Positions 7,398 to 45,302 of a stretch of 64,000 bases of DNA are shown here, piece after piece (position 1 is the stretch's first letter; the number at the start of each line of letters is the position of its first letter). Source of the stretch: Candidatus Eiseniibacteriota bacterium (lineage in GTDB: Bacteria; Eisenbacteria; RBG-16-71-46). The position numbers and the translations under genes were made by a program. The notes under the pieces are model-generated. The model was not told where the DNA came from. It saw only the letters and a list, made by a program, of their open reading frames with translations, and did no database searches. The stretch covers positions 96,001 through 160,000 of the forward strand of contig JBGPFC010000002.1 of assembly GCA_041483195.1 (NCBI GenBank). Direction: 5' to 3'.

Positions 7398-7843
7398 TGG
7401 CGCGCGGGGCGGTGAGGCCGGCGCGCGTCCCGTTCGCCGTGAATCTCGAGCTCAGCCACGGCCGTCACGGCGCGGCGGCGCGGCTCGAGATTCACGAGCG
7501 CGGCGGCGACCGGCTCGCCCTGCTCAAGCTCAGCGGCTGGATCGACCAGGTCGCGGTGCGCCGTCTGGAAGGGACGCTCGCCGAGCTCGCGGAGCGCGGC
7601 ACGAGCCAGCTGCTCCTCGACTGTTCGCAGCTTCGTCACATCGACTACCGGCTGGTGCCGGTGCTGGTCGACGCGCTGTCGCGTTTCGAGACCCACGCCG
7701 GCGGGTTCGTGGTGTGCGGGCTCTCGCACTACCTGCGCGACCTGTTCCGCCTCGCGGGATGCGAGCCGCGGCTGCGCTGCTGGCCCAACGCGGACGAGTT
7801 GCTCGGTCCCGCCCTCGAGCCGGGCCGTGAGCGCGCGTCATGA
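7394..7843 (+). CDS. STAS-domain (anti-sigma-factor antagonist-like) protein
   Basis: 'LLKLSGWID...LLLDCSQLRHID...GGFVVCGLSHYLRDLFRLAG'; overlaps both mraZ and rsmH. Confidence 0.75.
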   Translation: MMARGAVRPARVPFAVNLELSHGRHGAAARLEIHERGGDRLALLKLSGWIDQVAVRRLEGTLAELAERGTSQLLLDCSQLRHIDYRLVPVLVDALSRFETHAGGFVVCGLSHYLRDLFRLAGCEPRLRCWPNADELLGPALEPGRERAS

Positions 7844-30221: not shown

Positions 30222-30231
30222 GGGCTCGGGC

Positions 30232-31374
30232 CTAGGCGGCGCTGTGGACGGCGCCGCGTCGCGCAAGCGCCTCGCGGTAGACCCCCTCGATGCGGTCGGT
30301 GACGCGGGGCCACGCGAACTCCAGCGCGCGCGTGCGCCCCCGCGAGGCGAGGACCACCCGCCGCTCGTGATCTTCCACGAGCCGTGAGAGCGCGTGTGCC
30401 AGCGCCCGGCCATCACCGGCCGGGAACATCACCCCATTCTGGTCGGGGACGACGACCGAGCGATACCCCGGGATGTCGGAGGCCACGACCACGCGTCCCG
30501 CCGCCATCGCCTCGAGCAGGACGATTCCAAAGCTCTCGTTACCTGAGGCCGGCGAGACGAAGATGTCGCCGGTTGCGTACCAGCGCGGGAGCTCGCCGCT
30601 CGGCACGTGTCCAAGGAAGACGACGTGCTCACGCAGCGCGGCCGGCACCGAGGCCTGATACCGCGGCCGCAGGTAGGAATCGCCGACGATCAGGAGCCGA
30701 GCCCGGCCGTGCGTGCGTTCGACCACCTCGGGCATGACATCGAGCAGCAGCTGAACACCCTTGCGCGGGTCGAGTCGGCCGACGAAGAGCAGGTTCACCT
30801 TGTCGCGATCGCGCCAGCGTTCGAACGGCTGCACCGATGGATGGAAGCGATCGATGTCGACCCCGTTCGGGATCACGTGGTACTCGCCCGGGAAGTAGCG
30901 GGCCGTGAAATCGCGAGCGGTGTTGGAGACTGCGATGCGCGCGTCCAGGCGGGCCACCACCGGTTCGAACCAGCCCTTGATCCAGTCGAACACCCGGTTC
31001 GGCGTGCCGGTGGTGTGAAACGTCCCGACCTGCGTGCATTCCGCGGCGAGAATCGCGAGCAGCGGGAGCGTGGGGACGAGCGGGGCGTGCGTGTGGAGCA
31101 GATCGAAATCGTACTCGCGCATGATCGAGCGCAGCTGGCTCTTGAGACGGATCCCGATCGCGAGATCGACGAACGCCCCATTGAAAGGCACGAGGACGTT
31201 GTATCCGATGCGCACCACGCCCGGCGCGTGCATCGCTTCACCCTGTCGAAAGCGGCTGGTGATGATCGTGACGTCGTGCCCGCGCCGCCTCAGCTCGAGC
31301 GCGGTGTAATGCACATGCTCGGTGACGCCGCCGTAGCGCGGATAATAGGACTGGGAGACGATCCCGATCCTCAC
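30232..31374 (-). CDS. GT4 glycosyltransferase, PimA (phosphatidylinositol mannosyltransferase)-like
   Basis: 'MRIGIV...GGV..HV', 'VPFNG', 'VGTFH', 'ARIAVS', 'IPNGVD', 'ESFGIVLLEAMAAG'. Confidence 0.8.
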   Translation of the reverse strand: MRIGIVSQSYYPRYGGVTEHVHYTALELRRRGHDVTIITSRFRQGEAMHAPGVVRIGYNVLVPFNGAFVDLAIGIRLKSQLRSIMREYDFDLLHTHAPLVPTLPLLAILAAECTQVGTFHTTGTPNRVFDWIKGWFEPVVARLDARIAVSNTARDFTARYFPGEYHVIPNGVDIDRFHPSVQPFERWRDRDKVNLLFVGRLDPRKGVQLLLDVMPEVVERTHGRARLLIVGDSYLRPRYQASVPAALREHVVFLGHVPSGELPRWYATGDIFVSPASGNESFGIVLLEAMAAGRVVVASDIPGYRSVVVPDQNGVMFPAGDGRALAHALSRLVEDHERRVVLASRGRTRALEFAWPRVTDRIEGVYREALARRGAVHSAA

Positions 31375-32267
31375 GACGCCTGCACGCTCCGCGCCGCGGC
31401 CGCGGGCTCGGCCTCGGCGGCCGGGGCCGGCTCCCATAGCGGCCGGAAGATGCACCACTGGTCGAGGTGTTCGCGGATGTGTCGCGCGGCGGAAGCTGCG
31501 ACGGCGGCGTTGAGCGCCGCCGTGTTCTCGAACCGGGCGGGGTCGAGCGCAGGCTCCATCACGATTCGGAATCGCCCCGGTCCGAGTCGCTCGCAGAACC
31601 CCGAGATGATGAGTGCCCCGGTGCGTTGCGCGAGAACTCCGGGGCCGGCGGGAAACCGCATCTCGCGCCCGAAGAATTCGACGGTGACGCCGTGGCTATA
31701 GACGTCGCCGTCCACCATGAGCGCCACGAGATCGTTGTGCTCGAGCGCCCGCAGCAGCTTCCGGAAGCCGTCTTCCGGGGACACGGTGTGGATCGCGAGC
31801 TCGGTTTTCGTCTCGCGCACTGCGGGGGTGAGCCAGCGGTTGAGTTGCACCCCGGCCACCGCGTGGAGCGCGTATCCCCAGTGCGCGAGCACGACCGCCG
31901 CCAGCTCCCAGTTTCCGACGTGGCAGCTGCTGAGGATGACCCCGCGTCCGCGCGCAACCGCCTGCTCGAGGTGCTCGCGTCCCACCACCTCCACCGATCG
32001 GAGCAGGTCGTCGCGGGTCAGGTGGGGCAGCCGGAAGAACTCGAACATCATCCGATTGTAGCTGCGCATCATCCGCCGGACGATGCGCAGCCGGTCGCGG
32101 CGGCTTGCCCGCGGGATGACAACCGCCAGATTGGCGAGCGCGGCATGCCGACGGGAGGGGAAGCATCGAAGATGGAGCTCGGTCAGCGCGTCCGCGAGCA
32201 GGTAACCGAGGCCGAGCGGGAGACTGGCGATCAACGATGTGAGCCAGCCGAAAACGAGTCGAGACAT
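31371..32267 (-). CDS. Lipid acyltransferase (LpxL/PatA family)
   Basis: 'GRGVIL..CHVGNWEL', 'VEFFG', 'DQWCIF'; GTGA overlap with the PimA-like gene. Confidence 0.85.
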   Translation of the reverse strand: MSRLVFGWLTSLIASLPLGLGYLLADALTELHLRCFPSRRHAALANLAVVIPRASRRDRLRIVRRMMRSYNRMMFEFFRLPHLTRDDLLRSVEVVGREHLEQAVARGRGVILSSCHVGNWELAAVVLAHWGYALHAVAGVQLNRWLTPAVRETKTELAIHTVSPEDGFRKLLRALEHNDLVALMVDGDVYSHGVTVEFFGREMRFPAGPGVLAQRTGALIISGFCERLGPGRFRIVMEPALDPARFENTAALNAAVAASAARHIREHLDQWCIFRPLWEPAPAAEAEPAAAARSVQAS

Positions 32268-32319
32268 CCTGTTCCCCACTCCTTGTATGGACCGGCTGGG
32301 CGAGCGATCCGGTGAGGCG

Positions 32320-32349
32320 AAGCTACGGCCTCGCGCGAAATGCTGTCAA
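32320..32349 (-). promoter_or_regulatory. Sigma70-type promoter for the acyltransferase-GT4-MFS operon
   Basis: Minus strand TTGACA-N18-TAGCTT. Confidence 0.6.
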
Positions 32350-32427
32350 GGCGCCTGGGTGCCTCGCGCGGGCCGTGCGCGCGCCGAAACTCGCGGGGGA
32401 AGGAGCCGCGCACATCGCGCCCGATCA

Positions 32428-32457
32428 TTGACCCGGCCGCGCCGCGAGGGATACGAT
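32428..32457 (+). promoter_or_regulatory. Sigma70-type promoter for the hypothetical gene at 32580
   Basis: TTGACC-N18-TACGAT. Confidence 0.5.
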
Positions 32458-32579
32458 GCTCACGTTCGGCAGCGCGTCGAACCGGGTTTTCGAAGCCGGG
32501 CTTCGGCCCCGATGCCATGGATGGACATTGCGCGGCAATCGCATGCGACTCGCCGCTGCCGCGCGCGGAGGGTACGGTC

Positions 32580-32999
32580 ATGGCCAGTCAGAAGCTGGTT
32601 CGCTGCCTGATCCGTCGGCGCGGCAGCCGTGAGGATGGAAGTCTGCGATTCATTCCCCTCGAGATCTTCGGGTTGTGGGAATACCTCATGAGCACCAAAC
32701 ATGACTTCGAGGTGGTCGCGCCGCGGGCTTCACTTTGGCTCGACATGGAGGACTCTCCCGAAGCGGCATACAGCGAGAATCAGTACGAGCGCGTCACCGA
32801 AGTCTCGGCATTCGTCTACTCCGGGCGCGACGAGATGTTCACGCGCGCCTGCCGGTATTTCAGGAGCGACGAATGCGAACGCCTGAAGAGCATCTTCCTC
32901 GCGCACTACGCCGAGGGCGACGAACACCCCCAGACGCACGTTCGGGAACGCCAGGGCATCTGGCTGCACCGGCAGGCCGGAGCGGTTCCCATCTCCTAG
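32580..32999 (+). CDS. Hypothetical protein (139 aa)
   Basis: SD GGAGGG; globular, non-shadow amino-acid composition; own promoter and downstream hairpin. Confidence 0.7.
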   Translation: MASQKLVRCLIRRRGSREDGSLRFIPLEIFGLWEYLMSTKHDFEVVAPRASLWLDMEDSPEAAYSENQYERVTEVSAFVYSGRDEMFTRACRYFRSDECERLKSIFLAHYAEGDEHPQTHVRERQGIWLHRQAGAVPIS

Positions 33000-33002
33000 T
33001 GC

Positions 33003-33025
33003 GAAGGGCCGCGGCGCCGCCCTTC
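33003..33025 (+). terminator. Hairpin after the 32580 gene
   Basis: GAAGGGC...GCCCTTC inverted repeat right after the stop; no clear U-tract. Confidence 0.4.
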
Positions 33026-33132
33026 CGCCAGCCCGCGAGATTCCGTCGCACGGCACCCTGCCGGGCCCCGCGGTTCCCGGGCCCCCCGGGGCGGCACCTC
33101 CTCGCTTCCCCCTGGCCTCGCGTTCTTTTCGT

Positions 33133-33160
33133 TCAAGCCGCCGTGAGCCCGCGCCGATAG
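33133..33160 (+). promoter_or_regulatory. Sigma28 (FliA/WhiG)-type promoter upstream of mglA
   Basis: TCAAG-N15-GCCGATAG. Confidence 0.6.
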
Positions 33161-33418
33161 CACTCCCTGTATAGGCAGGCGCCCGGCCAAACGCCAGGTC
33201 AGGCGGATGCGGTCCTCGCCGCCGGCGTCCGCAGGGCGCCAGCAGACGAGAATCGCGGCCCCATCCGATGCGTGAGGATCGTTCGGGCGACGCGTTTCGG
33301 CGCGGAAGCAAATGGACGGTTTGCACCATCCTCAAGGTTCCCGTGGAGAAAGGGCGGCAAGGGGCTCCGTGGGACAAAATCTTGTGACAGGGTGGGGTCG
33401 CTCAGGGAGGAACTCATC

Positions 33419-34699
33419 GTGGTCGTCGTGAGCTATTCGGGCAAGGAGATCAACGCCAAGCTGGTGTACTACGGATGCGGCTTGAGCGGCAAGACCACGA
33501 ATCTCGAATCCATCTACGAGGCGGTGCCGGACACCAGCCGCGGGAAGATGGTGAGCATGAAGACTCAGTCGGATCGAACCCTCTTCTTCGATCTGTTGCC
33601 GCTCGATCTCGGCGAGATCATGGGATTCAAGACGCGATTCCTGCTGTACACCGTGCCGGGCCAGGTCTTCTACAACGCGACCCGCAAGCTGGTGCTGAAG
33701 GGTGCGGACGCCATCGTGTTCGTCGCCGACAGCGAGGTCGGCAAGATGGAGGAGAACAAGGAGAGCCTCGCGAATCTCCGCGCGAACCTCTCGGAATACG
33801 GCCTCAGCCTCGACAACATTCCCTACGTCATTCAGTACAACAAGCGCGATCTGCCAAACGTCTACACGCTCGATGAGCTGAACGCCGAGGTCAATCCGGG
33901 CGGCAAGGTGCCGTTCTTCGAAGCGGTCGCGAAGGACGGACGGGGCGTGTTCGAGACGTTCCGCGGGATCTCGCACCTGCTGATGGAGAAGGTGACGCGG
34001 GACTTGAGGCGCAGCACCGGCGGCGGGCCGGCCCAGCGCCCGGCGGCCGAGATGCCTCCCGAAGCCAGGCCCGAGCTCGCGCATCCCGCCCAGCCGCTCG
34101 CGCCTCCCAACGTGCCCGCGCACCTCGCGGCGCGCGAAATGCCAGAGGCCCCGGCGCTCGCGAGCGGGGTCGATTATGGCCGCGAGATCGAGCTTCCCGG
34201 CGCGCGCGCGGCCGCGGCCCAGGCGGCGCAGGGCGCCGCCACTCCACAGGCCGCGCCCGTCACCTCCGCATTCGCCTCACCCGCGCCGATCGCTTCGGCC
34301 CCGGTCGCGGCCGCTCCGGTTCGCCAGGCCGAGGCCGCTCCGGTCGCGCCTCCGAGACCTCACCAGCCCGAGGTCGCGTCCGCTCCGGCGCCAGCCGCGC
34401 CGGCACGTGGCGCGACTCCGCACCCGAAGGCGGAAAGCGCCTCGCAGCCGGCTGCGAGCGGTCGCTTCGCCGCCGAGAGCGCGCCTCCCGCTCCGCGCCA
34501 CGAGGGCGCGTCGGCCGGAACCGCGACGGCGCACGCCGTGCGCGCGGCCATCGTCGACGCAACCCATCCGGCGTCATCGCCGGCCTCTCCGGGGCTGGCC
34601 CAGCGCATGGATTCCGAGGAGCTCATCGTTCCGATCCGGCTCGGTGTCAAGGGCACGCACGAGATCGTGCTGCGCATCGTGCTCAAGCTCGAGGGCTGA
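33419..34699 (+). CDS. mglA: MglA-family small GTPase with long Pro/Ala-rich C-terminal extension
   Basis: SD GGAGG plus GTG; 'EINAKLVYYGCGLSGKTTNL', 'DRTLFFD', 'LYTVPGQVFY', 'QYNKRDLP'. Confidence 0.9.
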   Translation: MVVVSYSGKEINAKLVYYGCGLSGKTTNLESIYEAVPDTSRGKMVSMKTQSDRTLFFDLLPLDLGEIMGFKTRFLLYTVPGQVFYNATRKLVLKGADAIVFVADSEVGKMEENKESLANLRANLSEYGLSLDNIPYVIQYNKRDLPNVYTLDELNAEVNPGGKVPFFEAVAKDGRGVFETFRGISHLLMEKVTRDLRRSTGGGPAQRPAAEMPPEARPELAHPAQPLAPPNVPAHLAAREMPEAPALASGVDYGREIELPGARAAAAQAAQGAATPQAAPVTSAFASPAPIASAPVAAAPVRQAEAAPVAPPRPHQPEVASAPAPAAPARGATPHPKAESASQPAASGRFAAESAPPAPRHEGASAGTATAHAVRAAIVDATHPASSPASPGLAQRMDSEELIVPIRLGVKGTHEIVLRIVLKLEG

Positions 34700-34769
34700 G
34701 GTCCGCGTCGGCGCACGCGTTACGGATCCGACAAGTCTTCTCCAACCCGTCCGTTCCCCGAGATGCGTG

Positions 34770-34798
34770 TTGACAGGGGGGCCGCGGGTTCTTAGCTT
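34770..34798 (+). promoter_or_regulatory. Sigma70-type promoter (near-leaderless) for the secreted protein-trpA pair
   Basis: TTGACA-N17-TAGCTT, ending 10 nt before ATG 34809. Confidence 0.65.
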
Positions 34799-34808
34799 GA
34801 GTGCACCC

Positions 34809-35264
34809 ATGAAGGCTCCGATCGTCCTGATCTCCTGCCTGGCGCTGACAGCGGCGCTCTCGGTTCCTGCGTCCCGCGCGTCGGCTAATCCGTTCGGCGG
34901 AACCGGTCCATCCGTTTTCACTCCGCGCGTCCCGATCAGCGCGCTGGCTCGCCCGGTGGCATGGCTCGACCCGTCGCGCTTTCACGTCTCCTCTTCGGTC
35001 AGCATGGGCTCCGGATTCGGCGGCGGAGTGGACGCGCTGCAGACCCTGAGCCTGAGCTATCGATTTGCCGCGCCCGCATGGATGAACGTCAGCCTCGGGA
35101 ACACCTGGGGGCCGGACGCCGCGGGCGGGCGCAACTCGATGTTCCTCGAGGGCGTGGACTTCGCGTTTCGACCGAGCGCCTCGACCTTCTTCGAATTCCG
35201 TTACCAGAATCTAAGGTCGCCTCTCCAGCGTTCGCCGGTCGCCTCGGGATTCTGGGGACCGTAG
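34809..35264 (+). CDS. Secreted beta-strand-rich hypothetical protein
   Basis: Signal peptide 'MKAPIVLISCLALTAALSVPASRASA'; alternating beta patterns 'LSLSYRF', 'FFEFRY'. Confidence 0.7.
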   Translation: MKAPIVLISCLALTAALSVPASRASANPFGGTGPSVFTPRVPISALARPVAWLDPSRFHVSSSVSMGSGFGGGVDALQTLSLSYRFAAPAWMNVSLGNTWGPDAAGGRNSMFLEGVDFAFRPSASTFFEFRYQNLRSPLQRSPVASGFWGP

Positions 35265-35295
35265 CGCCCGCTCCGGGTCCTTCCGGCCTGCGCCC

Positions 35296-36081
35296 GTGAG
35301 CCGCATCGGCACCGCCTTTGCAGCATCGCGCGGCCGCACCGGCCTCATTCCGTACATCACCGCCGGGTACCCGTCGCTCGACGCCTCTCTCGACATGATG
35401 CGTGCTCTCGATGGCGCCGGCGCGCTGGCGATCGAGATCGGGATTCCCTTCTCGGATCCGATCGCGGACGGCCCCGACATTCAGCGTGCTTCGGAATGGG
35501 CGCTACGCCAACACGTCGGCGTTCCCCATGTCCTCGACCTGGTCGCTCGGTTTCGCCGCGAGAGCGAGCTTCCGCTCGTCCTGATGACCTATTTCAATCC
35601 GATCCTGCGCGCGGGAGTCGAGGCGTTCGCGGCCGGCGCCAGGGCGGCGGGGGTGGACGGTGTGCTGGTCTCGGATCTGCCGCCCGAGGAGACCCCGGAG
35701 GTGTGGGAGTGCTTCGACCTCGCGGGGATCGACACGGTGGTGCTGGTTGCCCCGACCACCGATTCCCGGAGGCTGCCCCGGCTCGTGGGGCGCAGCCGCG
35801 GATTCGTCTACTGCCTGGCGCGGACCGGCGTCACGGGCTCGAGCGATGGCTACAGCGGCCCGTTGCCGGACCGCGTCGCGGAGTTGAGGCGGCACTCGAC
35901 GCTGCCGGTCGCGGTCGGCTTCGGGATCTCGGGGGCGGGGGACGCACGGGCGATGCGCGAGGTCGCGGATGCGATCGTGGTGGGCGCGGCCTTCATGCGC
36001 GAAGTGGGGCGTGATCTCGAGCGCGGGGCGGACACGCGGGTGCGTGCGCTCGCGGACCAGTTGGTCGCGGCGTTGCGCTGA
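35296..36081 (+). CDS. trpA: Tryptophan synthase alpha chain
   Basis: 'PYITAGYP', 'EIGIPFSDPIADGPDIQ', 'MTYFNP', 'GVTG', 'VGFGIS', 'IVVG'. Confidence 0.96.
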   Translation: MSRIGTAFAASRGRTGLIPYITAGYPSLDASLDMMRALDGAGALAIEIGIPFSDPIADGPDIQRASEWALRQHVGVPHVLDLVARFRRESELPLVLMTYFNPILRAGVEAFAAGARAAGVDGVLVSDLPPEETPEVWECFDLAGIDTVVLVAPTTDSRRLPRLVGRSRGFVYCLARTGVTGSSDGYSGPLPDRVAELRRHSTLPVAVGFGISGAGDARAMREVADAIVVGAAFMREVGRDLERGADTRVRALADQLVAALR

Positions 36082-36087
36082 GGCTCA

Positions 36088-36115
36088 CGCGGGGGGGCAA
36101 TGCGCTCCCCCCGCG
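36088..36115. terminator. GC-rich hairpin between convergent trpA and the small peptide gene
   Basis: CGCGGGGGG...CCCCCCGCG inverted repeat; no U-tract on either strand. Confidence 0.55.
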
Positions 36116-36150
36116 CGGATCTGCGGGTGCGAAGTCGTGGCCGCCGCGTC

Positions 36151-36207
36151 CTAGCGGCGGATCCACCACAGCAGATCGATGTACAACACGATCAGGCCGA
36201 GTTCCAC
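36151..36207 (-). CDS. Unannotated 18-aa hydrophobic peptide MELGLIVLYIDLLWWIRR
   Basis: Perfect SD GGAGGT (36218-13) 5 nt before GTG; GC3-rich codons; upstream sigma28-type promoter. Confidence 0.6.
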   Translation of the reverse strand: MELGLIVLYIDLLWWIRR

Positions 36208-36311
36208 GGTTTACCTCCAACTTCGAGGGTCGCGTTCAAGACGCGGTCAACCGTTCGGATCGGCCGCCCGTGGGTTGGCAGCGCGGGCGGGGGAGGCGGC
36301 GTCCTGCCGTC

Positions 36312-38786
36312 TCACCTCGCAGCTTCGGCAGTCGCGCGATGCAACTTGAGTGCTTTTTGCGTGGCGGGTCCCGCTCCCCGCGCCGGCTCGGTGAGCTGGC
36401 GAAGCACCACCACCGTCAGGTCGTCGAGCGGACGATCGGCGAAGGCGCGCACGGCGGCGAGCAGCGCCTCGAGCACGTCCGCCGCCCGCCTCCCGGGGCA
36501 GGCGTCCAGCACCTCGCGAACCCGGTCGGTCCCGAACAACTCGTCACCGCACTGTGCCTCGGTGAGGCCATCGGTGCAGAGCAGCAGCAGATCTCCGGCT
36601 CCGAGTTCGACCGGCACGTCGGGATAGGTGGCGTCCACGCTCACTCCGAGCAGCACGCCACCATCCGTGAGTTCCTCGAAGCGGCCGTCGCGCCGGCGAA
36701 CCAGCGGCGGGGTGAGGCCCGCGTTCGCGAGCCAGACCCGCCCCCCCCGCACCTCGATGCGCGCGCAGAGGAGTCCCATGAACTTCTCGGGTTGATCGAG
36801 GCCGACCAGCTCGCGATTGAGAACGTCCAGCAGCGCGCCCGGACTCAGCGCGCGCCGCGCTTCGTCGCGGAAGCGCGCCTGCACGCCGGCGAGCACCAGC
36901 GCGGCGGGCACACCCTTCCCGGCCGCGTCACCCACGGCAAGCGTGAAATCGCGGGGCGCGGTCTCCACGAAGTCGTAGTAGTCGCCCCCCACCGACTCGC
37001 ATGAGAGCGTGGCCGCCGCGCAGTCGAGCGTCGGATAGACCGGTGCGCGACGGGGGAGGCGGTGCGCCTGAATGGCGCCGGCCTCGCGCAGCTCGCGCTC
37101 CAGCGCGCCGTGCGAACTGGCTTCGCGCCGCAGCGCGCGATTCTCGAGCGCCACCGCGAGATGGTCGGCGAACCGCTCGAGCTCGCGCGCCTCGAGCTGT
37201 CCGAGCCATGCGCCCGCCAGCCGCCGCCCCAGCAGCAGCAACGCGCGCCGCGGAGACTCGCCGACCGGCACGATCCATCGCACGCCGCCGCGCTCCAGGG
37301 CCATGGCGAGCTCCGCGCCCCCCTCGACCTCGTCGACTCCCACCACGCCGGCGCGATCACCCAGCGCGCGCGCCAGATCGGTTCCACCCGCGGGCAGCGT
37401 CGTTTCCCCGACGTGGCCGGCATCGCGCGCGATCCCGTGCTCGAGCGCCAGCGCCGCGCAACCGTCGAGCCGCAATTCCGCGGCCAGCGTCCCGCATGCC
37501 GTCGAGAGCAGGGGCTCGAGCCCGCCGGGGTGATCCGCACCGCTTCCCACGATCGAAATCACTCCGCTGCTCGCCGGCAACCGCGCACGCAATCCGCGGA
37601 CCCATGCGCTGAGCGGGCCCGCCAGCCCCGCGACCAGCGGAACACTCGCGAGCGCCAGGCCCTCGACCTCCGCGCCCAGTTCGGCGCCGCGGTGCAGGGC
37701 GATCCATTCCCCGCCGAGATACGCGAGCGCGCCCCCCGCGCCGAGCATCAACGCGAGCGAGCCGGCGCGCAGCGCCATCCGGAAATCGAAGATGTGATGA
37801 ACCACCACCGCCCACGCGAACGAAGCCGGCACCAGCAGCGTGAGCATGACCGCCCACCGTTCGCCGGGGACGGCCGTGCCCGGGGAGAGATTGCGGATCA
37901 GGATCAGGGCCGCGAGCGGGCCGGCGCCGAGCACGGTGCCGGCCAGCGCGACGCGCAGACGCCGGCGTTCGTCGGCCGACCGCGCTCGAAAGTAGGATCG
38001 CCCGAAGAGCGCGAGCGCGACGATGAGCCCCAGCGTGAACCACACCGCGGCCGCCACCTGAAGTGCCGCGAATGCCACGTCGGCGCCCGGAAAGGCGCTC
38101 GGTCCCAGCGGCTCGAGGAGCGCGGTCGCAAACAATACCGCAGCGATTCCATAGCCCCATCGAACGCGCGTCTCGAGTCGCCCGCCCCAGCGGGCCGGTT
38201 CTGGGAACATCGCGAAGAAATGGACGAAGAGCGCCGGCAGGAATAGCGTGATGCCCGAGTACGCGGTGCGCCACACGAGCGCGAAGGCCGCCGAACGCAG
38301 CTGGGGGAGCGGCGCGATCAGCCATGCAAACGCGAGGCAGAGCAGGAAGAAGGTGCGCGTGAGCCGGTCGCGCCGCTCGCTCCAAACCAGCCCCGCGAGC
38401 AGCACGAAGCCCGAGCTCACGACCAGCAGCGCCGCGAGCATGCGGCGCTCGGAATCGGGAAGCGGCTCGGCGGCGAGCCAGACCCGATCGCGACGATCCC
38501 CCGCGCGTCGTTCGAGGAGCAGGGGCCGGCCCGGCGCGGCGTCCGCGAGCAGCTCGCGCGCGAGCCACCCTGAATCGGTGGGGCGGCCGGTCGCCGCCAG
38601 GCGGTCGCCCGGCAGTATCCCGGCCCGATCCGCCGGACTTCCGGCGATCACGGCCGCGACACGATCCGACTGGACGATCAGCCCGGTATAAGGCCGGCCG
38701 GGCACGCCAAGGGCCGAGCACGCGAGCACCGAGGCCGCGGGCAAGAGCAGCCAGGCGATCATCCGGGCCGACCATCCGCGATGCAT
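36312..38786 (-). CDS. Membrane PP2C/SpoIIE (RsbU-like) phosphatase: PDZ, multi-TM, GAF-like, SpoIIE
   Basis: PDZ 'GSPADRAGILPGD'; SpoIIE 'VGGDYYD', 'GDAAGKG', 'CTDGL', 'DDLT'; SD GGAGG. Confidence 0.9.
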   Translation of the reverse strand: MHRGWSARMIAWLLLPAASVLACSALGVPGRPYTGLIVQSDRVAAVIAGSPADRAGILPGDRLAATGRPTDSGWLARELLADAAPGRPLLLERRAGDRRDRVWLAAEPLPDSERRMLAALLVVSSGFVLLAGLVWSERRDRLTRTFFLLCLAFAWLIAPLPQLRSAAFALVWRTAYSGITLFLPALFVHFFAMFPEPARWGGRLETRVRWGYGIAAVLFATALLEPLGPSAFPGADVAFAALQVAAAVWFTLGLIVALALFGRSYFRARSADERRRLRVALAGTVLGAGPLAALILIRNLSPGTAVPGERWAVMLTLLVPASFAWAVVVHHIFDFRMALRAGSLALMLGAGGALAYLGGEWIALHRGAELGAEVEGLALASVPLVAGLAGPLSAWVRGLRARLPASSGVISIVGSGADHPGGLEPLLSTACGTLAAELRLDGCAALALEHGIARDAGHVGETTLPAGGTDLARALGDRAGVVGVDEVEGGAELAMALERGGVRWIVPVGESPRRALLLLGRRLAGAWLGQLEARELERFADHLAVALENRALRREASSHGALERELREAGAIQAHRLPRRAPVYPTLDCAAATLSCESVGGDYYDFVETAPRDFTLAVGDAAGKGVPAALVLAGVQARFRDEARRALSPGALLDVLNRELVGLDQPEKFMGLLCARIEVRGGRVWLANAGLTPPLVRRRDGRFEELTDGGVLLGVSVDATYPDVPVELGAGDLLLLCTDGLTEAQCGDELFGTDRVREVLDACPGRRAADVLEALLAAVRAFADRPLDDLTVVVLRQLTEPARGAGPATQKALKLHRATAEAAR
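36322..36349 (-). promoter_or_regulatory. Sigma28-type promoter for the 18-aa peptide gene, inside the last codons of the PP2C gene
   Basis: Minus strand TCAAG-N15-GCCGAAGC, preceded by an A-tract. Confidence 0.55.
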
Positions 38787-38815
38787 CCGTGCCTCCCGGG
38801 TCGAACGGCGGCCCG

Positions 38816-38843
38816 AGGCTAACAGGGCGGCCCCGGCTGTCAA
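38816..38843 (-). promoter_or_regulatory. Sigma70-type promoter for the PP2C gene
   Basis: Minus strand TTGACA-N16-TAGCCT with extended -10 TG. Confidence 0.55.
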
Positions 38844-38858
38844 GATTCACTAGGGGCT

Positions 38859-38887
38859 TTGTAACCGGGCCGGGATGTGGCTATTCT
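38859..38887 (+). promoter_or_regulatory. Sigma70-type promoter for csrA
   Basis: TTGTAA-N17-TATTCT. Confidence 0.5.
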
Positions 38888-38891
38888 CGCC

Positions 38892-38919
38892 TTAAGTGGT
38901 TCAAAGTTCTTGCCGATAC
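38892..38919 (+). promoter_or_regulatory. Sigma28-type promoter for csrA-flgM-like operon
   Basis: TTAAG-N15-GCCGATAC. Confidence 0.7.
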
Positions 38920-38975
38920 GCTGACTGTCCGACGGGTGATTCTCGCCCCGGCACCGGAGCGGAGGAAGCTTCACG

Positions 38976-39230
38976 ATGCTGGTCCTAACAAGGAAGTTAG
39001 GAGAAAACATTCGGATTGGTGACTCGGTGAAGATCACCGTGCTCGAAGTGCGTTCCGGGCAGGTGAAACTCGGAATCGAGGCTCCACCCGAGGTGAAAGT
39101 GCACCGGGAAGAGATTTATGCCCGCATCCAGGAAGAGAATCGGCGCGCACAGCGAACCAAGGTCGGCGGCTCCGAGCCGGCGGCCGCGCCGCGCGACAGC
39201 GAAACGAAGGACCGGCCCGCGCCCGAATGA
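38976..39230 (+). CDS. csrA: Carbon storage regulator CsrA (Asn55 / FliW-type)
   Basis: '[16 protein letters not shown]...[23 protein letters not shown]'. Confidence 0.97.
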
Positions 39231-39309
39231 GTCGGTCGCACGCGATCCGGGGCCGTCGCCGCCGGTGGCGGCGCGGCGAGCCGACAACGACCCCATTTCG
39301 CGAGCCAAC

Positions 39310-39510
39310 ATGAAGTCCATCCGTCCTCCATCTCGCAGTCGTCGTCCGCTGCCCCTGCCGGCGCGGCCGCCGTCGACGGTCTTCGCCGAGCCCATCCGCT
39401 GGCCGAACGTCATGACCGCGAGGGCTCGCATCGCGGTGCAGTTCTACGACCGTCCGGACGTGCGTGCCTCGGTCCTGGCAGCTGTGCTGGACGAGTTGAT
39501 GCGCGAGTAG
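39310..39510 (+). CDS. FlgM-like anti-sigma28 factor (66 aa)
   Basis: Disordered N-half followed by 'IRWPNVMTARARIAVQFYDRPDVRASVLAAVLDEL', matching the FlgM C-terminal 'R..kV...r..I..g.Y......a..l' pattern; sigma28 promoter and csrA context. Confidence 0.55.
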   Translation: MKSIRPPSRSRRPLPLPARPPSTVFAEPIRWPNVMTARARIAVQFYDRPDVRASVLAAVLDELMRE

Positions 39511-39542
39511 AATTCGGGTTCGGTGCTCGATGCCGGCCCGGG

Positions 39543-39582
39543 GCGGGGCGGTCGCGGTGTCCGCGGCCGCCCCGCTTGTTAT
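39543..39582 (+). terminator. Intrinsic terminator after csrA-flgM-like
   Basis: 15-bp GC stem (39543-57 / 39561-75) followed by TTGTTAT; overlaps an extended -10 TGtTATACT (39577-85) for the next gene. Confidence 0.7.
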
Positions 39583-39611
39583 ACTGCGCGCTCCATGAGA
39601 GCCAAGTGTCG

Positions 39612-40814
39612 GTGAGGCGCGGTCGCGTGTCGGTGCTCTCCATCCCGATGGGACCGCTGAGTCGTGCGCTCATGGACGACTCGGACAGCGGCGTGGTGGT
39701 GCTCGATCCCGCGGCACGAGTCGCGAGCATCAATCCGGCCGCGCTGCGTCTGCTCGCCCTTCGTGCCTCGGACGCTCGCGGCCGCCCGCTGAGCGAGCTG
39801 CTCCGCACCGTCGTCGCGAACGACGATCTCGTAGGCGACGCGTTGCGCGCATCGCGCACCGAACGCGAGGCGGTGCTGCTCGCGCGGGATGGAAGCGAGG
39901 TCCCCGCGCTCGTCCGCAGCGTTCGGCTGGGCCGCCCGCCGTGGGTGCTGATCACGCTGCGCGATCTCACGCAGGTCCGGCGCATGCGGGAGGAGCTCCG
40001 CCGCCACGAGCGGCTCGCCACCCTGGGCCAGCTGAGCGCCGGCATCGCGCACGAGATTCGCAATCCGCTCGCGGGCATCGGCACCAGTGCGCAGGTCCTG
40101 TTGCGCCGATTCGAGCCCCGCGACGATCGGGCCAAGTTCGTGCGGGTGATTCTCGAGGAGGTCGCGAGGCTCGACCGGATCGTGACCAGCCTGCTCCAGT
40201 ACGCCCGCCCCCGGACCCCCGAGCTGCGTGCCGGCACGCTCGCGGCCTGCATCGAGCGCGTGCGGGTGCTCGCGAGCGAAACCATCGGCCAGACCGGGGT
40301 GCGGGTGGAAGTCGACGTGGCGCCCCGGCTCGGTCCGGTCTACATTGACTCAGACCTCGTCACGCAGGTGGTGCTGAACATCACGCTGAATGCCGTTCAG
40401 GCGATGCCCCAGGGTGGGACGCTCCGCTACGAGGTGCGCCGCGCGCGTCGTCGTCCGGCGCCGCGCGGGCCCGGACGACGCGCGTCGGACGCGGTGCGCC
40501 CGCCGGGGGGGGCGCGACGAGCCGTCGAGCGCGTGACCTTCCAGCAGGTGCGCGTGAGCGACACGGGGACCGGGATCCCGCGCGGCGTGCTGGCGAAGCT
40601 GTTCGATCCGTTCTTCTCGACCAAGCCCCGGGGCACCGGGCTGGGTCTCTCGATCTCGCAGACCATCATGCAGGAGCACGGTGGGACGATCGAAGTGGCG
40701 AGCCGCGAAGGGCGCGGCACCACCGTCCTGCTCAATTTCCCCGTGGAGAAGCGACATGGTGAAAGGCGACAGCTCGACGCACGTGCAGACCGCGCACACG
40801 CTACTCATCGTTGA
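39612..40814 (+). CDS. Cytoplasmic PAS sensor histidine kinase (NtrB/FleS/FlgS-like); start uncertain (39612/39648/39672)
   Basis: PAS 'SGVVVLD...INPAA', H-box 'AHEIRNPL', 'NAVQAM', 'DTGTGI', 'FFSTKPRGTGLGL'. Confidence 0.92.
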   Translation: MRRGRVSVLSIPMGPLSRALMDDSDSGVVVLDPAARVASINPAALRLLALRASDARGRPLSELLRTVVANDDLVGDALRASRTEREAVLLARDGSEVPALVRSVRLGRPPWVLITLRDLTQVRRMREELRRHERLATLGQLSAGIAHEIRNPLAGIGTSAQVLLRRFEPRDDRAKFVRVILEEVARLDRIVTSLLQYARPRTPELRAGTLAACIERVRVLASETIGQTGVRVEVDVAPRLGPVYIDSDLVTQVVLNITLNAVQAMPQGGTLRYEVRRARRRPAPRGPGRRASDAVRPPGGARRAVERVTFQQVRVSDTGTGIPRGVLAKLFDPFFSTKPRGTGLGLSISQTIMQEHGGTIEVASREGRGTTVLLNFPVEKRHGERRQLDARADRAHATHR

Positions 40815-42189
40815 CGACGAGCGTTCGCTGCGCTTCAGCATCGGGGAATGGGCGCGCGACGCGGGTTACCAGCCGGTCGAGGCCGCAGGGTGCCGCGAGG
40901 CGCTGGAACGCATGCGTGAGCAATCCGTCGATGTCGTGCTGCTCGACCTCAAGCTCGGGGACGAGGACGGCATGGAGGTGCTTCGTGATCTGCGCGCCGA
41001 GGATCCCTCGCTGCCGATCATCATGCTGACCGGGCACGGCACCATCGAGCACGCGGTGCGCGCGACGCGGCTCGGCGCATACGACTTCATGCTCAAGCCT
41101 CCCGATCTGGACCACCTGGGTGTGGTGGTGGCCCGCGCGCTCGAACACTCGCGGCTCCGCCGGGAGGTCGATCGCTTCCGCGCGACCTCTGGCCAGAATC
41201 AGCCCATGATCGGCGAGAGTCCGGGGCTCAAGCGCGTGCTCCAGCGACTCGAGAAGGCGGGCAAGAGCAGCAGCGCGACCGTCCTCATCCAGGGGGAGAC
41301 CGGGGTGGGGAAGGAGCTCATGGCGCAGTTTCTCCACGCTCACAGCCCGCGCGCCGGCGGGCCGTTCATCGAGCTCAATTGCAGCGCGATTCCCGAGCAG
41401 CTTCTCGAGAGCGAGCTCTACGGGCACGAGAAGGGCGCGTTCACCGACGCCAAGCGGTTCAAGAAGGGGCTGTTCGAACTGGCCGACGGCGGCACCCTGT
41501 TTCTCGACGAGATTGGTGAAATGGCGCCCGCGCTCCAATCGAAGCTGCTGCGAGTGCTCGAGAATCGCACCTTCCGCCGCGTGGGCGGACACGCCGACAT
41601 CACGGTCGACGTTCGGGTCGTGGCCGCGACGCACCGCGATCTCAAGCGCGCGGTCAGCGATGGAAAATTCCGGGAGGACCTCTACTTCCGGCTCAACGTC
41701 GTGCCGATCGAAATGCCTCCGTTGCGCGATCGGCAGGAGGACATCCGGGCGCTCGCGGAGCATTTCATCACGCGCTTCTGCCGCGAGCTGGGCCGCCCGG
41801 TCCTGCGACTCCACCCCGAAGCGCTCAGGGGTTTTCACGACTACGCGTGGCCTGGAAACGTTCGCGAGCTGAAGAACGTCATCGAGCGCGTGGTCCTGCT
41901 CGAGGCCGACGACGAGATCCGGCGCGAGCACCTGCCCTCCGAAATCCATCGCACGACCACGCGCGAGACCGCGGCGGGCGCGGCGGCGAGCCCGTTCCCC
42001 CCGGGGGTCGTTCGGCCGCTTGCCGAGATCGAGATGCTGGCGATCGATCACGCGCTGGTCGTGTGCGAGGGTAACAAGACCCGCGCGGCGCACCTGCTCG
42101 GCATCTCGCGCCAGACCCTGAGAACCAAGCTCAAGGAATTCGCCATCGAGGACGATGTTGAAGAGGGTGGCGAGGTGGGCCCCGAGTAG
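40756..42189 (+). CDS. Sigma54-dependent response regulator (REC, AAA+, Fis HTH)
   Basis: 'GETGVGKE', 'ESELYGHEKGAFTDA', 'LFLDEIGE', 'FREDLYFRL', 'WPGNVREL', 'GNKTRAAHLLGISRQTL'. Confidence 0.96.
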   Translation: MVKGDSSTHVQTAHTLLIVDDERSLRFSIGEWARDAGYQPVEAAGCREALERMREQSVDVVLLDLKLGDEDGMEVLRDLRAEDPSLPIIMLTGHGTIEHAVRATRLGAYDFMLKPPDLDHLGVVVARALEHSRLRREVDRFRATSGQNQPMIGESPGLKRVLQRLEKAGKSSSATVLIQGETGVGKELMAQFLHAHSPRAGGPFIELNCSAIPEQLLESELYGHEKGAFTDAKRFKKGLFELADGGTLFLDEIGEMAPALQSKLLRVLENRTFRRVGGHADITVDVRVVAATHRDLKRAVSDGKFREDLYFRLNVVPIEMPPLRDRQEDIRALAEHFITRFCRELGRPVLRLHPEALRGFHDYAWPGNVRELKNVIERVVLLEADDEIRREHLPSEIHRTTTRETAAGAAASPFPPGVVRPLAEIEMLAIDHALVVCEGNKTRAAHLLGISRQTLRTKLKEFAIEDDVEEGGEVGPE

Positions 42190-42499
42190 TTCGCAGCGCC
42201 TCTCCCTGGTCCCGCGGCTCGCGCCGATCTTCCCCCGGCGCCGACCAGGAACCGTTCGTGCGTTCTAGGCGTGCGCAACGAGGTTAGGCGGGCGGAATGC
42301 ATTTCGGAATGCAGTCGGTTCGCGCGTTTCGCCAACTCCGGAGCTGATCCACCCGCCCGGCCGGGTTCGCGCGGTTTCTCGCGCGGCGCCACAAGTCGCT
42401 CTCCCTGAACGGTATGGCCCCGGCCTCACGGGCGCATCGCCGATCCGATCCCGGGCTCGGAATGAGCGCCGGCCGCGTCGTTCGCGCCCTGCCCGAGGC

Positions 42500-42515
42500 T
42501 GGCACGCAGACTGCA
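42500..42515 (+). promoter_or_regulatory. Sigma54 (-24/-12) promoter of the REC-flhG-fliA operon
   Basis: TGGCACG-CAGA-CTGCA with exact GG-N10-GC spacing, 39 nt before ATG 42555. Confidence 0.75.
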
Positions 42516-42554
42516 ACCGGGTTTCCGCGCTGCCACCCACGGAGACCCCTTTCC

Positions 42555-42956
42555 ATGTCCCACATTCTCATCGTCGATGACGAACCCACCACCTCGTGGG
42601 CGCTCGCGGAAGGGCTGTCGGACGACGGCTTCAGCATCGACACCTTTCGCAGCGCCGAAGACGCGTGGGCCTGGCTCCAGGGTGGGCACAGCGACCTCGT
42701 CATCTCCGATCTCCGGCTGCCGGGCATGAGCGGACTCGAACTCGCTCGCAAGCTACGCCGCGGCCGCCACGCGCAACCGGTCATCATCGTGACGGCGTAC
42801 GGCACCCCGGAGACGATCCGCGACCTGCGCGGCGCGGGTGTCGCCGACTGCTTTACCAAGCCGTTCCCGATCGATCGGCTGCGTCGCTCGGTGCGCCTCG
42901 CGCTCGAGGCCGCCGCCCAGCGCGCCCGCCGGCGCCGCAAGGCCGCGGCGTGCTGA
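42555..42956 (+). CDS. Single-domain response regulator (REC)
   Basis: 'ILIVDDE', 'DLVISDLRLPGMSG', 'VTAYG', 'TKPF'. Confidence 0.9.
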   Translation: MSHILIVDDEPTTSWALAEGLSDDGFSIDTFRSAEDAWAWLQGGHSDLVISDLRLPGMSGLELARKLRRGRHAQPVIIVTAYGTPETIRDLRGAGVADCFTKPFPIDRLRRSVRLALEAAAQRARRRRKAAAC

Positions 42957-43291
42957 GCCGCCCCGCCTCGCAACGCGCGCGCGGCCTCAGGCGCGCCCCC
43001 GCGCCGGTGCGCCAGCTCGCGGCGCTCCATTCCGGCCGGGCGCGGATTCGCGCCGCGCTCGAACATTGCGCGGAGCAGGAACGCGCGGTGCTGGCCCTCA
43101 TGTTGTTCGAGCGCCTCACGCCGGCGGAAGCCGCGCAGGCGCTGGGGATGCCGATCACGGATCTGCTGCGCACCTACGACGCGCTGCTCCGCGAGCTGCG
43201 GCGCGCGCTGCGCGGGCTGAGATTCCGATCGAGGCTCACGCAGGACGGCCGCACCCGCACCGCGTCCGAAGCGCGCGTGAGGGAAGCCTGA
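42950..43291 (+). CDS. Stand-alone sigma-70 region-4-like protein resembling the FliA C-terminus
   Basis: 'EQERAVLALMLFERLTPAEAAQALG' versus FliA 'EQERLVVALYYYEHLTLKEIGRALG'. Confidence 0.7.
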   Translation: MLSRPASQRARGLRRAPAPVRQLAALHSGRARIRAALEHCAEQERAVLALMLFERLTPAEAAQALGMPITDLLRTYDALLRELRRALRGLRFRSRLTQDGRTRTASEARVREA

Positions 43292-43563
43292 TGCCGATCC
43301 GGCGGCCTCTGACCCCGAGCGCCGATCCGGCGGGTGAGATCCCGGCGACGTCGGGGGCGCGACTCGATCGCATCGACGCCGCGCTCGTTTCTCTGGGCGC
43401 GGAGCAGCATCGCCTCGAGCGCATCGGCCTCGAAATCCCACTCGCGCGCTGTCATACCCAGAAGCGCTACTGGATGTTCCTGAGGGCGTTGTTCTCGATC
43501 CCGGATGCGAAGCGCTCCACCCCGTGCGGAGGATCACCGTGGCCGAGCGCGACGATTCGCTGA
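43291..43563 (+). CDS. Hypothetical protein (90 aa)
   Basis: TGATG coupling to the upstream gene; helical core 'RLDRIDAALVSL...YWMFLRALF'. Confidence 0.6.
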   Translation: MPIRRPLTPSADPAGEIPATSGARLDRIDAALVSLGAEQHRLERIGLEIPLARCHTQKRYWMFLRALFSIPDAKRSTPCGGSPWPSATIR

Positions 43564-44462: not shown

Positions 44463-44477
44463 GAGGAGGAAGTCCCC

Positions 44478-45302
44478 ATGCCCCGTGCCGCCACCGCGTC
44501 CCCTGCACGTCCGTCCGTTTCCCTTCGCCTGGTGCCTCGCCGCGCCGCACCCGCGACAGCGCCGGGCCTCACCCCCGTGACCTACTCGAAGGACGATCTC
44601 CTCAAGCGGTTCGCGCCGCTGGTGCGTCACGTCGTCGAGCGGGTGGCCGCGACGCTGCCGCGCAACGTCGATCATGAGGATCTCTACTCGGCGGGGGTGC
44701 TCGGCCTGCTCGATGCCCACGCCAAGTTCGACACCCGCAAGGGCGTGAAGTTCGAGACCTACGCGGTGTGGCGGATCAAGGGCGCAGTCCTCGATCAGCT
44801 GCGCGCGCTCGACTGGGTGTCGCGCTCGATGCGACGCAAGGCTCGCAATCTCGACGGCATCACACGCAAGCTCGACCAGAAGCTGGGACGCGCGGCGTCC
44901 GAGGACGAGGTCGCGCGCGAGATGAAGATGACGCGTGGCGAATTCTATCGGTTGCTCGATCACGTTCGGGGAGCGGTGCTGGTCTCGCTCGACGAGAGCC
45001 GTTCGGGCGAGGAGCAGGAACCCACCACGCTCGCCGACCATCTGCCCGATCCCAACGCCGCCGACGTCGAGGCCCGGCTCGAGGAAGAGCAGACGCATCA
45101 CGTGATGCTCAAGACCCTCGATCAGCTTCCCGAGCAGGAGCGGCTGGTGGTGGCGCTCTACTACTACGAGCACCTCACGCTCAAGGAAATCGGCAGAGCC
45201 CTGGGCATCTCGGAATCGCGCGTCTCCCAGGTTCACACGCGCGCCATGATGCGGCTGCGTCTCCGGCTGCAGAAGGCCCTGGCGCAGGAGCGGGCGGCGT
45301 GA
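44478..45302 (+). CDS. fliA: FliA/WhiG-family RNA polymerase sigma28
   Basis: 'LPRNVDHEDL.SAGVLGL', 'KFETYAVWRIKGAVLDQLRALDWVSRS', 'LYYYEHLTLKEIG..LGISESRVSQVH'. Confidence 0.95.
   Translation: MPRAATASPARPSVSLRLVPRRAAPATAPGLTPVTYSKDDLLKRFAPLVRHVVERVAATLPRNVDHEDLYSAGVLGLLDAHAKFDTRKGVKFETYAVWRIKGAVLDQLRALDWVSRSMRRKARNLDGITRKLDQKLGRAASEDEVAREMKMTRGEFYRLLDHVRGAVLVSLDESRSGEEQEPTTLADHLPDPNAADVEARLEEEQTHHVMLKTLDQLPEQERLVVALYYYEHLTLKEIGRALGISESRVSQVHTRAMMRLRLRLQKALAQERAA

Follow-up and report, generated by a model that had tools for sequence, protein, structure and literature searches.

Comparative evidence for a conserved micropeptide gene with a sigma-28-type promoter and a structured leader beside a membrane phosphatase gene in Eisenbacteria

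The flagellin mRNA hag of Bacillus subtilis is described as transcribed by sigma-28/sigma-D and repressed by CsrA (PMC6529632, PMC13443453), and the GGA sites that CsrA is reported to bind in hag and in flaA of Campylobacter jejuni lie within hairpin loops and at the Shine-Dalgarno (SD) sequence (PMC4894983, PMC13443453). The flaA leader is described as forming two ANGGA loops, 21 nt apart and supported by compensatory changes, and flaA mRNA as titrating CsrA in Campylobacter (PMC4894983). Among small peptides, MgrB, a membrane peptide of 47 residues in the PhoQ/PhoP regulon, is described as an inhibitor of PhoQ (PMC2789325, PMC8404706), and type II ComS open reading frames (ORFs) as encoding C-terminal pheromones of 7-8 residues that contain a WW motif (PMC5131902). 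In Pseudomonas, HsbR-HsbA, a partner switch of a PP2C phosphatase and an anti-sigma antagonist, is reported to bear on flagellar regulation, FlgM and sigma-28 (PMC6482189). Here we describe a very short ORF on the minus strand (36207-36151) of a 64,000-nt stretch of a Candidatus Eiseniibacteriota genome (contig JBGPFC010000002.1; hereafter the window), and compare it with these systems.

The comparative sequence evidence indicates that ORF 36207-36151 is a real gene, conserved across Eisenbacteria, for an 18-residue hydrophobic peptide, MELGLIVLYIDLLWWIRR. The window has a G+C content of 71%, and the genome to which it belongs (G000) is 96.8% complete. The SD sequence of the ORF, GGAGGT (36218-36213), stands 5 nt before the start codon, and the ORF is flanked by a SpoIIE-type PP2C phosphatase gene and by a convergent trpA gene (35296-36081, plus strand; Pfam Trp_syntA, 1.2e-79). 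The coordinates of the locus are collected in Table 1. An earlier reading of the window from its letters (the sequence-only reading) had called the peptide gene unannotated, which agrees with an exact look-up among approximately 15 billion predicted proteins, where none of nine homologues of 20-24 residues was present. Searches of two homologues of 20-22 residues against Pfam and NCBIfam gave no match at E values up to 10, and a full-text literature search for the C-terminal motif returned no relevant paper. The locus was found in 23 public sequencing runs, all of which were of sediment or groundwater DNA and none of RNA.

Table 1. Features of the micropeptide locus and of its surroundings, in window coordinates
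Feature	Position	Strand	Basis or remark
3' region of ORF	36088..36160	-	stop-codon hairpin 36160-36141 and G+C-rich hairpin 36116-36088 common to convergent trpA
Micropeptide ORF	36151..36207	-	18 codons and TAG; GTG start 36207-36205; stop 36153-36151
CCTC...GAGG hairpin around SD GGAGG (36218-36214)	36214..36228	-	4 pairs, 88.9% paired, one double change
Leader hairpin 3, variable loop	36231..36245	-	5 pairs, 2 with double-sided changes, 91.1% paired
Single-stranded element GGTTGACC	36245..36252	-	invariant in 52/52 leaders
Leader hairpin 2, invariant loop core GCCAACC (36279-36273)	36264..36290	-	covariation
Leader hairpin 1, loop AGGAC (36305-36301), candidate CsrA site	36293..36313	-	CGGC-AGGAC-GCCG core 36309-36297
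PDZ-GAF-PP2C (SpoIIE-type) membrane phosphatase, 843 aa	36312..38843	-	Pfam SpoIIE 2.2e-38 and PDZ match
-10-like element GCCGAAGC	36322..36329	-	inside last PP2C codons; relatives mostly GCCGAT
-35-like element CTCAAG	36345..36350	-	sequence reading; CTCAAG in 43/54 family leaders
csrA	38976-39230 (with promoter 38893..39230)	+	TIGR00202 92.7 bits, cut-off 70.1; divergent from PP2C
MinD/FlhG-like ATPase gene	43524-44462		precedes fliA; PAS kinase, sigma-54 activator and receiver protein further upstream
FliA/WhiG-family sigma factor	44478..45302	+	TIGR02479 248.2 bits, cut-off 189.6; Pfam regions 2, 3 and 4

The conservation of the ORF was examined both through its flank and through the peptide itself. 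A DNA search with positions 35600-36900 against 31 related genomes gave matches in 29, and within the same family these often began at query positions 552-554, that is, at the stop codon of the ORF, and extended through the ORF and its leader into the PP2C gene. Between genera, leader and ORF reached up to 85% identity, compared with approximately 72% for the adjoining coding DNA. In an alignment of 17 loci, an ORF of 17-19 codons was kept in 16, the 17th leaving its contig; in those 16 loci the SD distance was the same, the start codon was GTG or ATG, and TAG, TAA or TGA stood in one column. Because these loci had been located through the flanking gene and not through the peptide, this evidence is free of ascertainment bias.

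A search with the strict pattern D-[LF]-[LF]-W-W-I-R-R-stop found the peptide in 59 of 206 Eisenbacteria genomes (reversed control, 0), and a looser C-terminal pattern in 109 of the 206 (reversed control, 1). These patterns impose only the last eight codons and the stop, leaving the start, the SD sequence, the length and the hydrophobic front free; the phylum-wide tallies given here include one genome flagged as unpublished (G020). Counting all loci, 88 different DNA versions encode 74 different peptides of 16-24 residues, with 18 residues in 58 of the 88 versions. The start codons were GTG in 52, ATG in 34 and TTG in 2, the stop codons were TAG in 40, TGA in 34 and TAA in 14, and synonymous codon switches, such as CGC/AGG and CTG/TTG, occurred across the C-terminal octapeptide. 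The peptides share one layout, a variable, hydrophobic N-terminus followed by a fixed C-terminal octapeptide, D-[LI]-[LF]-W-W-[IL]-[RK]-[RK]-stop. The sequence-only reading had proposed the ORF and its SD spacing as a gene, and this proposal is borne out by the sequence and by the relatives, in which the peptide is conserved with synonymous changes and ORF, SD and promoter are all kept. The gene is single-copy in nearly all genomes, with synteny fixed across the phylum. One Eisenbacteria assembly carries a second copy (G109:C432:4021-4047, L110), located among unrelated flanking sequence on a contig of 4.9 kb. This copy encodes the same peptide as one of the genomes of approximately 1 Mb described below and is followed by a Cys-rich ORF.

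The sigma-28 (FliA) consensus consists of a TAAA-like -35 element and a GCCGATAA-like -10 element approximately 15 nt apart. A promoter of this type had been placed about 115 nt upstream of the start codon by the sequence-only reading, and it is indeed present there, conserved, and accompanied by a gene for a FliA/WhiG-family sigma factor in the same window. In the window CTCAAG and GCCGAAGC are separated by a 15-nt spacer, and the -10 element has A in place of T at its sixth position. The motif was fitted by 46 of 54 family leaders, 44 of these 46 with the 15-nt spacer and 30 with GCCGAT, and in other families a similar motif lies 125-195 nt upstream of the peptide gene. The flagellin of a flagellated relative (G052) is preceded by CTAAAG, 15 nt and GCCGAATT, as judged from the one or two flagellin genes inspected. 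In the window's own genome, 13 strict sigma-28-like matches were counted against about 2 expected from our base-composition estimate; they stand mostly before genes, including csrA, whose own sigma-28-like promoter lies at 38893-38918. A generic promoter and terminator scan of the locus, which models only sigma-70 promoters and T-rich terminators, returned no sites. Of 42 family loci examined (some genomes are counted twice), 29 have a PP2C reading frame that covers the peptide promoter and terminates with the TGA at the base of hairpin 1, and in four loci the frame continues to a TGA within the invariant GGTTGACC. Because the frame overruns the promoter in this way, the PP2C tail after 'LRQLT' appears to be shaped by the promoter and not by protein function.

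Between promoter and SD sequence the leader folds into conserved hairpins. The sequence-only reading had noted the first of them, with GGA in its loop; this hairpin is present, extends to a helix spanning 36313-36293 and is supported by covariation, with four of its six pairs showing double-sided changes and 97.4% of cells paired, and the PP2C stop codon TGA (36314-36312) lies at its 5' foot. Hairpin 2 has eight pairs, two of them with double-sided changes and 99.3% paired, and its loop letters are invariant in 52 sequences. Over the 52 distinct leaders, the three hairpins and the SD helix gave 95.2% standard pairs, versus 38.8-55.9% when the 3' partners were slid by 1-3 columns, and 53 cells with double-sided changes, versus 4-17 when slid; the observed values were reached by none of 500 shuffles. 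The SD helix is the weakly supported part of this fold, because the SD letters cannot vary. The minimum-energy fold of the window's own leader agreed with the hairpins, modestly (z = -1.8). A covariance model of the leader matched one place in the genome (E 2.7e-13; next match, E 0.56), and a search of Rfam with positions 30000-42000 gave no match at E values up to 1, so the leader is a structured element specific to this gene. The invariant GGTTGACC could pair with the loop of hairpin 2 (CAACC), as a pseudoknot, or with the start-codon region (ACCG), a proposal to which letters that never vary can lend no covariation; for the helix between CGGTT in the GGTTGACC region and the start-codon region, the three leaders with ATG starts showed no clean compensation, the other letters being invariant.

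At its other end, the transcript of the micropeptide gene probably terminates within the 3' region listed in Table 1. The stop-codon hairpin there has 7 bp and a TAGGAC loop, which makes it a third loop GGA, and is common to the genus only; neither a T-run in this region nor, in the alignment, conservation outside the genus was found. In lower-G+C relatives and in the phage copies described below, a clear terminator stands right after the ORF. The gene that follows differs by family, being trpA, bacA or a gene of the exo/endonuclease-phosphatase family. Because the downstream genes are convergent or variable and terminators directly follow the lower-G+C homologues, the peptide gene is taken to be monocistronic.

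The neighbour that is most constant is the PP2C phosphatase gene. The hydrophobicity profile of its product runs from a first transmembrane segment through the PDZ segment and approximately 6-7 further hydrophobic segments to the GAF region and the PP2C domain; Pfam GAF matches were obtained in orthologues only. In 61 of 73 peptide loci the gene portion for the PP2C catalytic domain comes immediately before the peptide gene and has the same orientation; the remaining 12 have no PP2C in the 1.5 kb examined, and in G052 a PP2C gene is adjacent but inverted. Orthologues of the N-terminal 450 residues were found in 140 of the 206 genomes; families f13 (0/8), f15 (0/5) and f18 (0/41) yielded none. 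At the family level, 14 families have the peptide as well as the PP2C orthologue, neither was found in f13, f15 and f18, and f9 alone has PP2C without the peptide; variant peptide endings missed by the pattern stand just downstream of PP2C in two of three f8 genomes and in the single f12 genome. CsrA, in contrast, is kept in f18 (38/41) without the peptide, and the peptide thus tracks the phosphatase more closely than it tracks CsrA or flagellin.

The locus also has a flagellar setting. In flagellated families the gene order is flagellin, csrA, fliW, flgL, flgK ... flgG, flgF, PP2C, peptide gene and then convergent trpA or bacA, so that the peptide gene stands at the margin of the flagellar cluster. 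The window has lost the structural genes between csrA and PP2C, and searches of this genome for flagellin, FliW and FlhA found none. Among the 206 genomes, flagellin was found in 73 (in none of the three other genomes of the window's genus), FliW in 47 and CsrA in 179. A flagellar-type regulatory island is kept at 38893-45302, comprising csrA, a 66-residue ORF, a PAS kinase, a sigma-54 activator, a receiver protein, the MinD/FlhG-like ATPase and FliA; the 66-residue ORF (39310-39510) matched nothing in Pfam or NCBIfam.

CsrA itself is encoded 2.8 kb from the peptide gene in the window and 2.7-13 kb from it, on one contig, in families f1 (the window's family), f2, f3, f4, f6 and f7. The arrangement resembles those of hag and flaA in combining a FliA-type promoter, GGA in a 5' hairpin loop, GGA in the SD sequence and a csrA gene in the locus, and in flagellated Eisenbacteria a distance of 10-13 kb separates the peptide gene from those for flagellin, FliW and CsrA. 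The loop of hairpin 1 carries GGA in 40 of 52 leaders, mostly as CAGGA, and in G052 a UGGAUG stands a few bases past the -10 element in both the flagellin and the peptide mRNAs. The product here, an 18-residue hydrophobic peptide, differs from the secreted filament protein of hag and flaA. Two observations concern the distribution of the CsrA partners: in the window's family FliW was found in none of 88 genomes although CsrA was found in 82 and flagellin in 30, and in f18, together with the PP2C orthologue and the peptide, neither FliW nor flagellin was found.

When 185,579 species genomes were searched with the strict pattern, 65 loci were obtained, of which we read 59 as the small ORF and 6 as chance or internal occurrences. 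Most of the 59 belong to Eisenbacteria. Four genomes of 0.8-1.1 Mb and 54-60% G+C (L153-L155 = G206-G208; L092 = G209) carry a stand-alone peptide gene; their database labels conflict, being Gammaproteobacteria or Kerfeldbacteria. The three examined have a ligA-gatC-gatA-receiver-ndk run a few kb away and a clear terminator past the ORF, and CsrA was found in three of the four. Viral contigs yielded a further 18 loci, in 10 of which the motif ends a small ORF; seven of these ORFs have 15-20 residues, one has 32 and two have 38-39. The two longest (one being P0001) begin with a Sec-like signal peptide, which is followed by an 11-13-residue tail with the motif. The phages concerned have 46-71% G+C, and their copies have their own SD sequence and terminator; five of the viral contigs are phage-like, with holin, endolysin, terminase and portal genes. 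On one of these five, a contig rated complete (G214), a gene for a 194-residue CsrA-domain protein (L179:2297-2881; Pfam 37.4 bits, cut-off 27) lies approximately 0.7 kb upstream of the peptide gene, and the genes for this protein, an HNH endonuclease and the micropeptide follow one another on one strand. In one phage the peptide gene adjoins a holin gene on the opposite strand. That the peptide recurs in phages and in genomes of very small size suggests a peptide module that is directed to the envelope and widely usable.

The reading that we favour, tentatively, is that of a membrane or envelope micropeptide coupled to the adjacent phosphatase and expressed as a late sigma-28 gene with gated translation; taken as a whole chain it falls somewhat short of probable, and our confidence in the gene, its promoter and its leader structure is far higher. 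The variable hydrophobic N-terminal stretch would place the peptide in or through the inner membrane, and the octapeptide D-L-L-W-W-I-R-R, always the end of the chain, would contact a partner. In Eisenbacteria the peptide would be made from a separate monocistronic late gene by sigma-28 (FliA)-type transcription that starts, in the window's family, within the last codons of PP2C. Translation is probably gated, since the leader of approximately 105 nt folds into three conserved hairpins and a weak SD helix, and the most likely gate would be CsrA, acting on the loop GGA of hairpin 1 and on the SD sequence. The most likely partner within the phylum would be the multi-pass membrane phosphatase next door, the PDZ domain of which is probably periplasmic. 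The peptide may tune this phosphatase, acting on it inside the membrane or presenting a free C-terminus to the PDZ domain, and the state of the sigma-28 regulon would thereby be fed back into a phosphatase-based switch.

Such a coupling would recall MgrB and SafA with PhoQ, in that a tiny protein with a single hydrophobic segment comes from the regulon that it may feed back on and is encoded beside a membrane sensor. It would differ from them in its candidate partner, a PDZ-GAF-PP2C phosphatase and not a histidine kinase, in a peptide of less than half the size, in an interaction that is suggested here by synteny, and in the occurrence of the peptide family where the sensor is absent. The likeness to HsbR-HsbA lies in a PP2C within or beside the flagellar cluster and in the presence of STAS-domain genes in the genome, whereas the present phosphatase is integral to the membrane, carries PDZ and GAF regions and has no adjacent STAS or kinase gene. 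The nearest STAS-domain (anti-sigma-antagonist-like) gene, at 7394-7843, lies approximately 28 kb from PP2C, just upstream of mraW and a cell-wall and division cluster, and two further STAS genes lie on contig C24; these proteins are possible substrates of the phosphatase.

Several results weigh against this favoured reading. With regard to the phosphatase, SpoIIE-type PP2C was found in none of the four peptide-bearing genomes of approximately 1 Mb and was not seen in the examined parts of the five phage contigs, so the phosphatase can be neither the universal nor the only target. The inference of the sequence-only reading that the peptide is a dedicated output of the cascade is too narrow: small ORFs with this ending also occur in phages and in genomes of approximately 1 Mb that lack a flagellar context or PP2C, so that the peptide cannot be a flagellar output alone. 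PP2C without an adjoining peptide gene was seen in two f9 genomes and one f8 genome, and the co-occurrence counts overstate independence, because genomes of one phylum are kin. With regard to topology, charge distribution sets the orientation of membrane peptides (the positive-inside rule), and the acidic N-terminus and RR end would be predicted to keep the C-terminus cytoplasmic, away from a periplasmic PDZ domain, whereas the Sec-like signal peptides of the two phage forms would export it, opposite to the charge prediction.

The CsrA step likewise meets contrary evidence, and we regard CsrA control of the micropeptide mRNA as plausible but weak. The loop GGA is missing in 12 of the 52 family leaders, at least six of them from genomes with csrA, and the GGA of the SD sequence is generic, being part of any GGAGG. 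Leaders of f1 are not enriched in GGA (3.96 versus 3.85 in dinucleotide shuffles), and those of other families contain 6.52 versus 5.65 in shuffles, with 3 of 33 above +2 standard deviations. The two candidate CsrA sites, recognised by their letters, lie approximately 87 nt apart in the sequence, a distance that folding could shorten, compared with 21 nt in flaA. FliW was not found in the window's family, nor flagellin in this genome. The CsrA proteins of Eisenbacteria are, in addition, mostly predicted by a published model to be unable to repress a hag-type reporter, as described in PMC13443453. Of the flagellin-like control that had been proposed by the sequence-only reading, then, the loop GGA, the SD GGA and the linked csrA are present in the window, and the parallel is weakened by the leaders that have no loop GGA, the lack of enrichment, the failure to find FliW and the wide spacing of the sites.

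A more novel reading has the octapeptide enter the periplasm as a ligand and bind, through its free C-terminus, to the PDZ domain of the neighbouring PP2C, closing a sigma-28-driven peptide-sensing loop. We consider this distinctly unlikely; if true, it would amount to peptide-to-phosphatase signalling in a diderm phylum, without a described counterpart, and phages would carry signal-peptide-fused or leaderless ligand mimics that manipulate envelope PDZ sensors of the host. Genes so small escape annotation, and this one is phylum-wide, with a readable regulatory programme and a constant neighbour. It also offers a handle on the sigma-28/CsrA module after loss of the flagellum, because the peptide and the flagellar regulators persist where flagellin, FlhA and FliW were not found.

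A doubtful, though serious, alternative is that the peptide is an exported signal, with an N-terminus for export or processing and an octapeptide that is released and sensed by the PDZ domain of PP2C or by another receptor. The variable hydrophobic front with a fixed extreme C-terminus resembles pheromone precursors such as ComS/SHP and those of arbitrium sensing, and the Sec-like N-termini of the two longest phage versions point in the same direction. PDZ domains bind free C-termini, which would account for the constant position of the motif right before the stop codon. The sequence-only reading had likened the peptide to streptococcal ComS as an analogy, and in part this holds: as in the ComS/XIP (RRNPP) systems, an unannotated ORF of similar size has a variable hydrophobic front and ends in 7-8 residues with an acidic residue and WW. 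The analogy breaks down at the receptor, since no gene of the Rgg, ComR (HTH-TPR) or AimR type is adjacent in the window or in five other families, the neighbour being PP2C, and at the sequence, where a basic RR end unlike XIP ends and no homology were found. Nor were linked export or processing genes seen. The host is a diderm, as indicated by a lipid A acyltransferase gene in the window, and we know of no such peptide-pheromone system in diderms. In the leaderless forms, the way charges are distributed speaks against an exported C-terminus.

Comparably doubtful is an autonomous membrane-active peptide that would act on the bilayer or on a membrane protein of universal conservation, be it as a small toxin, by modulating membrane potential, or as a phage factor for exclusion or lysis timing, and for which adjacency to PP2C would reflect shared regulation only. 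Trp/Arg-rich ends such as this one favour the membrane interface, as in antimicrobial peptides, and the stand-alone genes in phages and in the PP2C-less genomes of approximately 1 Mb, together with the holin-adjacent copy, would fit such a role. Type I toxins, however, often have an antisense RNA partner, several copies and a patchy distribution; in copy number and distribution they differ from this gene, which is single-copy and strictly syntenic across the phylum, and the constraint on the octapeptide far exceeds what bilayer binding alone would need.

An improbable alternative places the RNA in the main role, with the sigma-28 leader titrating CsrA or otherwise regulating and the peptide secondary, as in a dual-function RNA such as the flaA leader of Campylobacter. 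The leader, at approximately 105 to 195 nt, is far longer than the 57-nt ORF, and the identity of the element exceeds that of flanking coding DNA as given above; moreover, a family in which nearly all genomes have CsrA, none has a detected FliW and 58 of 88 have no detected flagellin would need another CsrA antagonist. Against this, the peptide is kept where the leader is unrelated, in other families, in the genomes of approximately 1 Mb and in phages, and the f1 leader offers only two candidate GGA sites, of which the loop site is dispensable in the leaders that lack it, without GGA enrichment.

Two further explanations are highly improbable. A chance ORF within a conserved non-coding element would fit its very short length, its being missed by gene callers and the conserved RNA structure alongside, but this explanation is already contradicted by the comparative sequence data, in that GTG and ATG starts interchange, three stop codons share one position, Arg and Leu codons vary synonymously by several bases, the N-terminus changes but remains hydrophobic, and the same ORF recurs amid unrelated flanks. 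A Trp-sensing cis leader or arrest peptide of the trpL/tnaC type, which the tandem TGG codons and a trpA gene that comes next, both here and in several families, might bring to mind, is effectively refuted by gene orientation, as trpA is convergent and not downstream, and it is further opposed by a following gene that varies by family, with trpA on another contig in four relatives, and by terminators right after the ORF.

Promoters of the same kind occur elsewhere in the genome. About a dozen more CTCAAG-15 nt-GCCGAT promoters stand before genes on contigs C3, C4, C5, C8, C13 and C15 of G000, with example sites at C15:33143-33300 and C8:91179-91300, and the sigma-28 regulon seems to have been re-used in this non-flagellated genome. 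One of these sigma-28-like promoters precedes an ORF with a prepilin-leader-like start.

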